DNA of 27,353 nucleotides from Thermoproteota archaeon (lineage in GTDB: Archaea > Korarchaeota > Korarchaeia > Korarchaeales > Korarchaeaceae): positions 1-27,353 of the forward strand of contig JAVCBY010000052.1 of assembly GCA_037917625.1 (NCBI GenBank), written 5' to 3'. A model generated the notes under the pieces. That model ran no database searches, was not told where the DNA came from, and worked only from the letters and a program-made list of their open reading frames with translations. Positions 13,845 to 15,464 of this stretch are shown piece by piece (within the stretch, counting starts at the first letter, position 1; each line of letters starts with the position of its first letter). A program made the position numbers and the translations under genes.

Positions 13845-14215
13845 GAGCTTCCAATTAATCTCTCTCATCAAAGTCAGGGTAGCATAAGTTCCTCATCGTG
13901 TATTAGGAGTCTCCTAAGCAGTATAAGGTGCTCCTCCACTCTCGTTATCGTTGATGGGATGGGCCTAACCCCTGGAGCTGCCTCAGTGAGCTAGAAATAG
14001 TGGAGAATAGCTTACCCTCAATAGTCTCTAGTAGCTATCTGGGAAAGGTTTATGGGCTTTTACCTCACTCATCAAACTCATTTCCTCGGAATTTAGGGAT
14101 TTTACGCTCCTCGACAGTCCTCAGGATATCAGCATCTGTTGTAAGGGGGAGCGCATCCCTAACTATGCACTGAACAGCAACTAAGGCATCGAAGTAATCT
14201 AATCCCCCTCCTCAT

Positions 14216-14262
14216 CTAGTCGCCTCGAGGAAACCCACTGGCTTTAGCCATGGGTAGTTGAC
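14216..14262 (+). mobile_element. 47-bp IS200/IS605-type remnant with a single hairpin
   Basis: Bulged 21-nt hairpin CCCA-C-TGGCT-TT-AGCCA-TGGG at 14234-14254, ending TAGTTGAC. Inserted 3' of TCAT with no target duplication. Confidence 0.8.
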
Positions 14263-14518
14263 AGAGCATGGTAGCTGTGAAGAAGTCCAGCGGTATCAGG
14301 ACCTCAATAGAATCCCTCGGAATTATCCGCTCCATGATGGACCATGTTCTCCTTCTCTCATCTGGGCTAAAGCCTCTGAATTTCATTAGGAGATCTAGCT
14401 CAATGAGAGCTGCTTGAGAGACCCTCCTCATGCTAAGATCGTTGATGATCTCCAGAGCTTCCTCATGTCTCGGATCATCTGGGTTGAGATAAGCGATTAA
14501 GTAAACTGTGTCAATTAT

Positions 14519-14755
14519 TAAAGTTTTCGCCAGAAAACCCACGCCATTCATGGGTGGGATGAATACGAAAATTTAAAAATTAGAGAGCTCAAGCAGTTTG
14601 GGATGTTCCCATGAACTCAATGATAATAGCCCATAGGGTAATGAGCTCTATGGGATGGGGGAGCTGTGACACCCCCGAACTCCCAGAGGTGGCTAGATGC
14701 ATAAAGCACTAGCCGAACGGGAGAAGCCCACACGCTTCAGCGGTGGGAGTGTCAC
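14519..14755 (+). mobile_element. 237-bp non-autonomous IS200/IS605-family element (MITE/PATE-like)
   Basis: Left hairpin at 14538-14558, right hairpin at 14727-14747, 3' end TCAC. Inserted 3' of TTAT with no duplication. Excision restores both the vapB stop and the vapC start. Confidence 0.9.
14566..14578 (+). promoter_or_regulatory. BRE/TATA-like promoter inside the element
   Basis: CGAAAA-TTTAAAA, about 25 nt upstream of a vestigial ATG TTC CCA TGA at 14603. Confidence 0.55.
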
Positions 14756-14775
14756 CTCCACTCTCCCTCACCATC
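14630..14775 (+). ncRNA. Putative TnpB omegaRNA (reRNA) scaffold plus flanking guide
   Basis: Four consecutive stem-loops, and loop GTGACAC (14666-14672) is complementary to the terminal GTGTCAC (14749-14755). The guide would start at 14756. Both RNA ends are estimated. Confidence 0.65.
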
Positions 14776-15005
14776 TTGAGCAACATGATTGATGCCTCAT
14801 GATCCTCCTCTCTCCAACCAGCGAATTTCCTCCTGAATATCTCAGCGATGCTATTAAGTTCTTTCTCCAAGGGGAAAGCTTCTAGATATCCTTTCTCTTT
14901 TATCCTGAGGACCAGCCGAGATCCCTTCTTCAGCCCGAGCTTCCTCCTCACATCGAGTGGCAGGAGAATTCTCCCACGATCATCTATCTTTACCACATAA
15001 CTCAT
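14709..15005 (-). CDS. vapB: AbrB/MazE/SpoVT-family antitoxin with an element-derived C-terminus
   Basis: VKIDDRGRILLPLDVRRKLGLKKGSRL. The native end is reconstructed as ESGDN*; it now reads ESGGDTPTAEACGLLPFG*. Confidence 0.9.
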   Translation of the reverse strand: MSYVVKIDDRGRILLPLDVRRKLGLKKGSRLVLRIKEKGYLEAFPLEKELNSIAEIFRRKFAGWREEDHEASIMLLKMVRESGGDTPTAEACGLLPFG

Positions 15006-15464
15006 TATCTCCCCTTTATTCTTGTGGGTACCAATAAAAATTTCCCATCGTAATGCATCTCCTCCTTCATAGAGGAATAGGGCCTCCTTAGTGCATCAGT
15101 CCAAAAGGCAGAGAGCTGAGGGATATTCCTCCACTCAACAGGATTCGATCCGAACTTAAGAGGAAAATCAGGACTTCAGGATTATTTAGCTAAATTGGAA
15201 GATCAGCTGGAAATGATAGATGAGGGCAGGAGTTAATGTAAGAGTGAAGGAAAAGTTGAGATTGAAATATGGAAGAAATACGTTCAACGCGAACATTTTA
15301 ATAGAATAGGAATTATGGTAGGCTGTTTTGGGCACTATTAGAGAGCTGCCGGTTCTGAGAGCTTCTTATCTCTTACAACCTCGGGCTCGGTGCCTCCCGA
15401 TCATGGAAACAAATGGAAGACACTCCGGAAAGATATGCTTCTATCTGTCAGCGAGCTCGGACCA

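Follow-up and report, generated by a model that had tools for sequence, protein, structure and literature searches.

An insertion between vapB and vapC

The stretch of DNA studied here, called the window below, is contig JAVCBY010000052.1 (27,353 nt; C27 in our numbering) of an archaeal metagenome-assembled genome (MAG; GCA_037917625.1, Korarchaeaceae) that comprises 1.22 Mb in 116 contigs and is 84% complete. Near its middle, two minus-strand genes of a probable toxin–antitoxin pair, vapB (an AbrB/MazE-type antitoxin) and the remnant of vapC (a PIN-domain toxin), are separated by 237 bases that are part of neither gene. These bases, at 14519–14755, are a non-autonomous element of the IS200/IS605 family, of the type known as palindrome-associated transposable elements (PATEs) or miniature inverted-repeat transposable elements (MITEs); elements of this layout are called minis here. 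An earlier note on this DNA had read them as an IS605-type mini-element without a protein gene, and had located a target TTAT, a terminal TCAC and two DNA guides, AAAA and GAAG. All four motifs lie where it placed them, and the ends, the empty site and the full-length parent described below bear out the rest. As that note had also stated, the element contains no plus-strand open reading frame (ORF) of protein length, the longest encoding 33 and 31 aa.

To find the empty site, contigs of two hot-spring metagenome runs (X1 and X2, from two studies) were aligned to the window. A 2101-nt contig of run X1 (depth 11) and a 455-nt contig of run X2 (depth 20.7) both join 14518 to 14756, skipping exactly 237 bases with 0 letters shared across the joint. 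Their flanks differ from the window by roughly 1.4–2.4%, and between 14463 and 14849 there are no differing letters outside the element. Close relatives of the host lineage thus still have the site unoccupied, and the insertion is recent. It lies 3′ of TTAT without target duplication, the signature of IS200/IS605 single-strand transposition; TTAT also stands directly before the conserved sequence in full-length relatives in our alignment. Run X2 also includes a contig (record 8) with a mini that matches the window copy in type. No orthologous empty vapBC site was found in 20 same-genus genomes, in which the matches were at paralogue level only, to the AbrB domain.

Ends of the element

Subterminal imperfect hairpins are present at both ends, and neither terminus is an inverted copy of the other. 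The distance from TTAT to the foot of the left hairpin is 19 nt, and the right cleavage site ends 8 nt past the foot of the right hairpin. The right guide, GAAG, would correspond to the right guide of IS608. AAAA together with TTAT keeps the IS608 pattern of pairing between guide and target, and variation within the family is too small for guide–site covariation to be seen.

IS608 has subterminal hairpins, each preceded at the foot by a 4-nt DNA guide; cleavage on the left takes place 19 nt 5′ of the hairpin, and the right site is 10 nt from the foot (He et al. 2011, PMC3201880). The two systems agree in their hairpins, in the positions of their guides, in the 19-nt left spacing and in insertion 3′ of a tetranucleotide without duplication. 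They differ in their motifs, which are TTAT/AAAA and TCAC/GAAG here and TTAC/AAAG and TCAA in IS608, and in the right spacing (8 nt here versus 10 nt; PMC3201880). In addition, our element lacks a tnpA gene, and none was found in the 84%-complete assembly.

Origin from a full-length TnpB element

In a genome of the same family (G030), contig C135 holds both ends 1.3 kb apart, delimiting a 1329-bp full-length element with a 419-aa ORF between them. The encoded protein scores 68.2 bits against PF07282 (the TnpB/Cas12f TNB domain) and matches solved TnpB and Cas12f structures, with ISDra2 TnpB at E 1.4e-6. When the window element is compared with this parent, the first ∼100 nt (left end, promoter region and start codon) are 80% identical and the last ∼123–130 nt are 81% identical, and the middle is without alignment. 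At the protein level, the right-hand module is homologous to TnpB residues ∼366–415; the homology to tnpB 3′ ends, on which the earlier note had staked its reading, is therefore present. Further full-length copies were found at loci L039, L052, L040, L063, L065, L066 and L086. By these comparisons, the element arose by internal deletion from an insertion sequence of the IS200/IS605 family that carried TnpB only (IS1341-type), with the loss of ∼1.1 kb of tnpB.

One further full-length locus, L084 (NZ_RCOS01000173.1), encodes a 419-aa TnpB with 100% protein identity to that of G030:C135, and may represent the same genome or a very recent transfer.

We regard the 33-aa ORF of the element as a relic, because the element aligns only to the start and the 3′ end of its parent. 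Nor do we take it as coding, as it is not kept in the second subfamily of copies (see below), where an 11-codon ORF takes its place.

The A/T-rich box at 14572–14579 is preceded by a purine-rich hexamer, an arrangement that the earlier note had called a retained BRE/TATA-like element (BRE, transcription factor B recognition element). In our alignment, the TATA-like box lies 22–27 nt upstream of a conserved block in 8 full-length elements as well as in the minis; two further rows were incomplete (L084 mostly, L086 wholly) and were not counted. This is the parent's native promoter, conserved at a fixed distance in full-length elements, and it presumably works as one. Archaeal transcription starts at a characteristic spacing downstream of the TATA box, which would put the start site near 14600.

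An ωRNA-type scaffold at the right end

The plus-strand fold of 14519–14775 has a predicted free energy of –100.2 kcal/mol (z = –5.63), and 0 of 200 shuffled sequences were as stable. To evaluate the fold across the family, we aligned the 130-nt right ends of eight copies in the genome and of the full-length element, wrote the four stems and the pseudoknot proposed in the earlier note as the structure, and built a covariance model (R1) from this alignment without the pseudoknot. Model R1 has matches in 19 of 101 related genomes. Among 35 homologues, 90.5% of cells form standard pairs, compared to 32–48% when the partners are slid by 1–3 columns. Both sides have changed in 31 of 40 pairs, and 0 of 500 shuffles reach the observed values.

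Covariation is seen in every stem. One pair of helix 2 occurs as G-C, A-U and C-G. The outer part of helix 3 is paired in 96.5% of cells, with 5/5 pairs changed on both sides, and the inner part in 86.2%, with 8/9 so changed. The corresponding values for helix 4, which is the right-end hairpin, are 94.4% and 6/8. One caveat here is that the counts for the nested helices are favoured, because the alignment was fitted to that structure. The pseudoknot is the fairer test, because it is absent from the covariance model. Six of its seven proposed pairs are formed in 26–33 of 32–34 sequences, and compensatory changes are evident: one pair occurs as G-C, C-G and A-U, and another as C-G, A-U and U-G. 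Only 5 of 27 sequences can form the seventh, 14672 with 14749. The covariance test that the earlier note had proposed thus supports its fold, with two amendments: all four stems are real and covary, the second having 4 bp rather than 5, and the 7-nt complement between loop and terminus shrinks to six supported pairs, the seventh to be dropped. Judged by covariation, the 130-nt module is an ωRNA-type scaffold, that is, a scaffold like those of the guide RNAs of TnpB, with four helices and a guide-adjacent pseudoknot. The coordinates of these and the other features are listed in Table 1.

Table 1. Features of the element and of the surrounding vapBC locus (positions in the window)
Feature	Position	Strand	Remarks
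vapC (PIN) remnant	14065..14518	-	PIN PF01850 19.1 bits, below the 23.6 cut-off
Separate 47-nt insertion in vapC, resembling a lone right end	14216..14262	+	Absent from X1/X2 contigs; unique in genome
TTAT target / transposon-adjacent motif (TAM)	14515..14518	+	In flank, outside element; empty-site joint directly 3′ of motif
IS200/IS605-family mini-element, non-autonomous, subfamily 1	14519..14755	+	9 genome copies; empty-site contigs of two runs
Left DNA guide AAAA	14534..14537	+	Directly 5′ of left hairpin foot; kept in 8/8 complete copies
Left subterminal hairpin, presumed TnpA site on top strand	14538..14558	+	Present in fold; conserved in copies and full-length relatives
BRE-like purine-rich hexamer and TATA box (TTTAAAAA)	14566..14579	+	Parent's tnpB promoter; putative function
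Conserved block ending in relic tnpB start codon (ATG 14611-14613)	14600..14613	+	Aligns to start of 419-aa TnpB ORF of L021
Relic ORF, 33 aa	14611..14712	+	tnpB start fused in frame to TnpB C-terminal residues
ωRNA-scaffold / right-end module, 130 nt	14626..14755	+	Model R1 156.5 bits; 81% identical to G030 element
Helix 1, 7 bp	14630..14654	+	94.9% of cells paired in 35 sequences; 5/7 pairs changed on both sides
Helix 2, 4 bp (14658-14661 with 14673-14676)	14658..14676	+	96.2% paired
Pseudoknot, 5′ half	14666..14671	+	In helix 2 loop
Helix 3, outer 5 bp and inner 6+3 bp	14680..14723	+	
Right DNA guide GAAG	14723..14726	+	Directly 5′ of right hairpin foot; nearly invariant in family
Right-end hairpin, TTCA loop; presumed TnpA site on DNA and helix 4 in RNA	14727..14747	+	
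Pseudoknot, 3′ half	14750..14755	+	Includes TCAC (14752-14755); directly before guide
Right flank, would-be 20-nt guide	14756..14775	+	vapB 3′ end on the other strand; once in genome; role by analogy with TnpB ωRNAs
vapB, AbrB/MazE-type antitoxin	14756..15005	-	PF04014 28.7 bits, cut-off 24.7; ORF runs on to 14709

Copies in the genome and conservation of the module

The genome holds nine copies of the element, eight complete ones in two subfamilies and one that is truncated at its 5′ side. Subfamily 1 comprises the window copy (C27) and those on contigs C107 and C14, which are 88–100% alike. The five complete copies of subfamily 2 (C29, C24, C35, C41 and C25) are ∼73% alike to subfamily 1. 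TTAT directly precedes the conserved sequence in 6 of the 8 complete copies, the other 2 having TTTATAT-type flanks, and similarity stops at TCAC in all nine. Among the nine flanks, no 20-nt guide has a second perfect match in the genome apart from the duplicate shared by C35 and C69.

The truncated copy on C69 (100–298, locus L009) lacks the left end and the promoter, and an upstream ORF reads into it. We considered whether this copy is a tnpB 3′ end and rejected the idea: the ORF is unlike TnpB, and homology to the minis begins downstream of the promoter. Between C69 and the copy on C35 (152–411, L006), identity begins at the conserved block that precedes the start codon and extends past the right end, where the shared flank covers the 20-nt guide by search and about 38 nt by eye before the loci diverge. 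A segmental duplication, recombination between copies or an effect of assembly could each explain this sharing.

Within both subfamilies, the module is more conserved than the 5′ part of the element. Module identities are 0.97–0.99 versus 0.88–0.95 for the 5′ part in subfamily 2, and 0.91–0.98 versus 0.83–0.88 in subfamily 1; in 13 of 13 within-subfamily pairs, conservation is higher in the module than elsewhere in the element. Indels in the module are confined among these minis to one base, in C24, and most indels fall in the linker between the start codon and helix 1.

Spread of the family

Minis with the same layout and other deletion junctions occur in G030, G033, G041, G014 and G017, and in MAGs of Jordarchaeia, Bathyarchaeota and Nitrososphaeria. 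By eye there are ∼7 junction types in which the deletion ends, on its 3′ side, no more than a few bases from helix 1. We also searched with the 33-nt block of helix 1 and found it letter-identical (two IUPAC positions allowed) in 26 contigs (loci L062–L087). The MAGs that carry it are labelled Bathyarchaeota/Bathyarchaeia, Jordarchaeia, Thermoproteota, Methanomethylicaceae, Culexmicrobium, Methanodesulfokora, Thaumarchaeota/Nitrososphaeria and Terraquivivens; 12 of the 26 contigs, mostly with minis, come from one Jordarchaeia MAG. Identity of this block across such labels suggests wide horizontal spread among archaea of hot environments.

The family is common in the communities of runs X1 and X2, because many metagenome contigs there hold the left-end and helix-1 blocks. 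The word depth summed over these blocks is 374–476, compared to 11–21 in the flanks, a difference that is not to be read as copy number. A census of minis anchored on the left end in five relatives gave 5 hits, 4 of them partial, the left end being too diverged, and model R1 run with filters off at four left-end loci gave weak matches only.

One mini departs from this layout. At about 86018–86160 of contig C62 in G030 (L108), a ∼135-nt element has the left end, the promoter and the last ∼45 nt, and lacks helices 1–3.

State of the vapBC locus

The element interrupts the locus where the stop of vapB overlaps the start of vapC. As a result of its position, vapB now reads 16 codons into the element, and vapC is without its own start and could begin only at an ATG inside the left end. 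The toxin-gene fragment remaining as an ORF spans 14216–14551 on the minus strand; its PIN match is below the cut-off because the gene is broken. The C-terminal half of vapC continues in another frame, and related strains have the intact form.

Two further lesions account for this shift in frame. One is the 47-nt insertion listed in Table 1, at which the X1/X2 contigs have 9–11 letters where the window has 55–57. It shows a guide-like GAAA, a hairpin and a GTAG-containing terminus, and is preceded by TCAT; the likeness to the family was judged by eye. An aberrant one-ended transposition or a deletion may have produced it. The other is a 1-nt deletion beside it (in the region 14200–14215), likewise absent from related strains. 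Because both of these would remain, excision of the mini alone would not restore vapC.

These observations bear on the target that the earlier note had proposed for the guide, the intact vapB–vapC junction. In the empty alleles of X1 and X2, TTAT is indeed followed by an unchanged match to the 20-nt guide. The further claim that cleavage would oppose restoration of the locus was overstated, given the other damage to vapC. The note's transcript antisense to vapB agrees with the geometry, by which the predicted RNA would run antisense to the 3′ end of that gene.

A proposed guide cassette for proteins supplied in trans

Our preferred reading, to which we give a probability of roughly 70%, is that the element is a deletion derivative that keeps the ends, the promoter and the ωRNA module of its parent, and serves as a guide cassette for TnpA and TnpB supplied in trans. 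A Y1 TnpA acting in trans would move the top strand of the element by single-strand peel-and-paste. The element's own promoter would drive a plus-strand RNA of ∼175 nt, from ∼14600 across the right end. A TnpB of the family, if present in the cell, would trim and load this RNA, with 16–20 nt of flank as the guide. The loaded TnpB would then cut empty sites that consist of TTAT plus the flank, be they donor joints left by excision or empty alleles that newly arrive, and recombination after the cut would restore or spread the insert. Such a scheme follows the established mechanism of the family, which Karvelis and Altae-Tran, both in 2021, reportedly described and which Meers et al. (2023, PMC10055086) also treat. 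Movement by TnpA, transcription of the module and its use by TnpB in trans are the parts of the scheme that we infer. No run on record as RNA was among those that contain this stretch, and transcription is favoured by the conserved promoter.

Several results weigh against this reading, and most of them concern the proteins. In the genome's own assembly, PF07282 had two zinc-ribbon-like hits, both sub-threshold, and PF01385 had no hit; a tblastn search that used the family TnpB recovered only residues ∼350–416, which are the minis themselves; and the Y1 transposase domain (PF01797) had no match. The copies of tnpB or tnpA with the same ends that the earlier note had proposed to look for elsewhere in this genome were accordingly not found in the 84%-complete assembly. 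Among 20 same-genus genomes, the family TnpB appears once, in G014, at 73–80% identity and broken by a stop. No full-length parent with a subfamily-1 scaffold was found in genome_contigs or metagenome_contigs. No Rfam family reached its gathering score anywhere in the window, and none of relevance appeared in 14100–15100 at E up to 10. Many of the compensatory changes may date from full-length ancestors. The statement that all minis keep the module is biased, because the probes that found the loci contain it, and minis can exist without the module, as is shown by the short element of G030 (L108), which has only the last ∼45 nt.

The absence of tnpB and tnpA is unproven, because the assembly is 84% complete and in 116 contigs, and repeats assemble badly. 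Exact-pattern scans for the subfamily-1 right end and for its helix-3 sequence returned 0 matches in genome_contigs and metagenome_contigs, from which the records of this genome were possibly excluded. PF01797 was found in 3 of the 5 relatives tested, including one same-genus genome in which it lies beside a different TnpB. Given that the searches of the assembly recovered neither TnpB nor TnpA, all nine copies may for now be guide cassettes that are unarmed.

Locus L089 (G017:C2:46677–50033) carries a complete tnpA (183 aa, Y1) and tnpB (443 aa) of a different IS605 lineage. This is the only Y1 transposase in the genus sample, and its place beside a different TnpB likewise counts against our reading; the right end of that element is unmatched by model R1.

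Other explanations

The strongest competitor, which we nevertheless hold to be unlikely, is that the element is an inert hitch-hiker: a TnpA-mobilised MITE in which the module survives by the chance position of the deletion and the youth of the copies, and whose RNA, if made, has no role. The missing TnpB and TnpA, the shorter mini without helices 1–3 and the broken full-length relative in G014 all fit such an account, as does the 88–98% likeness of copies within each subfamily, which leaves little time for decay. It accommodates poorly a module that is better conserved than its surroundings in every within-subfamily comparison and almost free of indels. Within subfamilies, moreover, substitutions at paired positions mostly keep pairing (by eye; C14 has two breaks), and in other archaeal lineages several junctions stop just before helix 1, an observation that was also made by eye and is subject to ascertainment bias.

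It is improbable that the module is instead a regulatory RNA independent of TnpB, acting as an antisense to the 3′ end of the vapB mRNA or as a decoy for TnpA, as has been proposed for haloarchaeal RNAs from PATEs and for sense overlapping transcripts (sotRNAs). A precedent exists in the PATE RNA with a UUCA loop that is expressed in Halobacterium salinarum and affects growth (Gomes-Filho 2015, PMC4615843), and read-through would run antisense to vapB by geometry. However, the other copies lie in unrelated contexts with flanks that have no second perfect match, which leaves no common target; a conserved guide-adjacent pseudoknot is a hallmark of TnpB/Cas12 guide RNAs; and with vapC already dead there would be little value in regulating this locus.

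That the insertion is an artefact of assembly or binning can be dismissed for the window copy on the contig data: although 4 of the 9 copies lie within about 650 nt of a contig end and C35 and C69 share an identical stretch that includes at least 20 nt of flank, the window copy is in mid-contig on 27 kb, the independent run X2 holds a mini of the same type, and filled and empty sites differ by exactly the element.

Relation to known systems

Protein-free elements that bear ωRNAs have already been published, and the present element belongs to that kind. According to Meers et al. (PMC10055086), PATEs 'often encode ωRNAs', for which TnpB would have to come in trans; such elements have been described in haloarchaea, where one is expressed (Gomes-Filho 2015, PMC4615843). 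The element resembles them in that its ends were fused after loss of the protein gene and in that its mobility would depend on TnpA in trans. It differs from them, as far as the text of those papers permits a comparison, in three respects: its family belongs to thermophilic archaea of several phyla that share the 33-nt block, the BRE/TATA promoter of the parent has been fused ∼25 nt upstream of the scaffold, and the host assembly is one in which no tnpB was found.

The ωRNA of ISDra2 (also called reRNA, right-end element RNA) has four stems and a guide-adjacent pseudoknot formed with 5′-proximal nucleotides (Nakagawa 2023, PMC10097598). It shares with our module its derivation from the tnpB 3′ end plus the right end, a scaffold of 116–130 nt, the count of four stems plus pseudoknot, the flank as guide (predicted for our module) and a TAM that is the transposon's target motif (PMC10097598). 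The two have no sequence similarity, however; our element has TTAT as its motif and encodes no protein in cis, and the pseudoknot partner is a hairpin loop about 85–90 nt upstream.

A UUCA tetraloop has been noted in archaeal IS1341 sotRNAs, in a PATE RNA and in the HgcC family (PMC4615843). Like those RNAs, the module would give a structured RNA from an IS1341-type tnpB 3′ end with a UUCA-loop hairpin (PMC4615843), yet it has no Rfam match at the settings given above.

Significance

At the locus itself, the annotation of vapBC should be that of a disrupted locus, with a vapC that carries three lesions. More generally, filled and empty alleles are seen here side by side in nature, and every sequence-level part of the TnpB homing model is visible. 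A guide cassette that has a promoter and no nuclease gene makes it testable whether minis with only an ωRNA can use TnpB in trans to persist and spread, and the short element L108, as a natural counterpart without the ωRNA, is a useful control for the module's role in the persistence of minis. For ωRNAs of this family in thermophilic archaea, the work also provides a covariance model that is compact, and the intact TnpBs of 400–420 aa may interest those who seek heat-stable compact nucleases.

A broader possibility, which we offer tentatively and consider doubtful at present, is that these minis are guide-only hyperparasites: a TnpB family would have repeatedly shed its protein gene, leaving ends, promoter and a 130-nt ωRNA to be armed by an incoming TnpB. 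On this view, deletions in several phyla of hot-spring archaea have come to end at one place, the 5′ foot of helix 1. The cassettes may outnumber and outlive the nuclease, waiting unarmed in TnpB-free hosts, and a horizontally acquired TnpB of the family would arm every cassette against the empty alleles of co-occurring strains. If this is true, the family would be a gene-drive-like parasite of a parasite.

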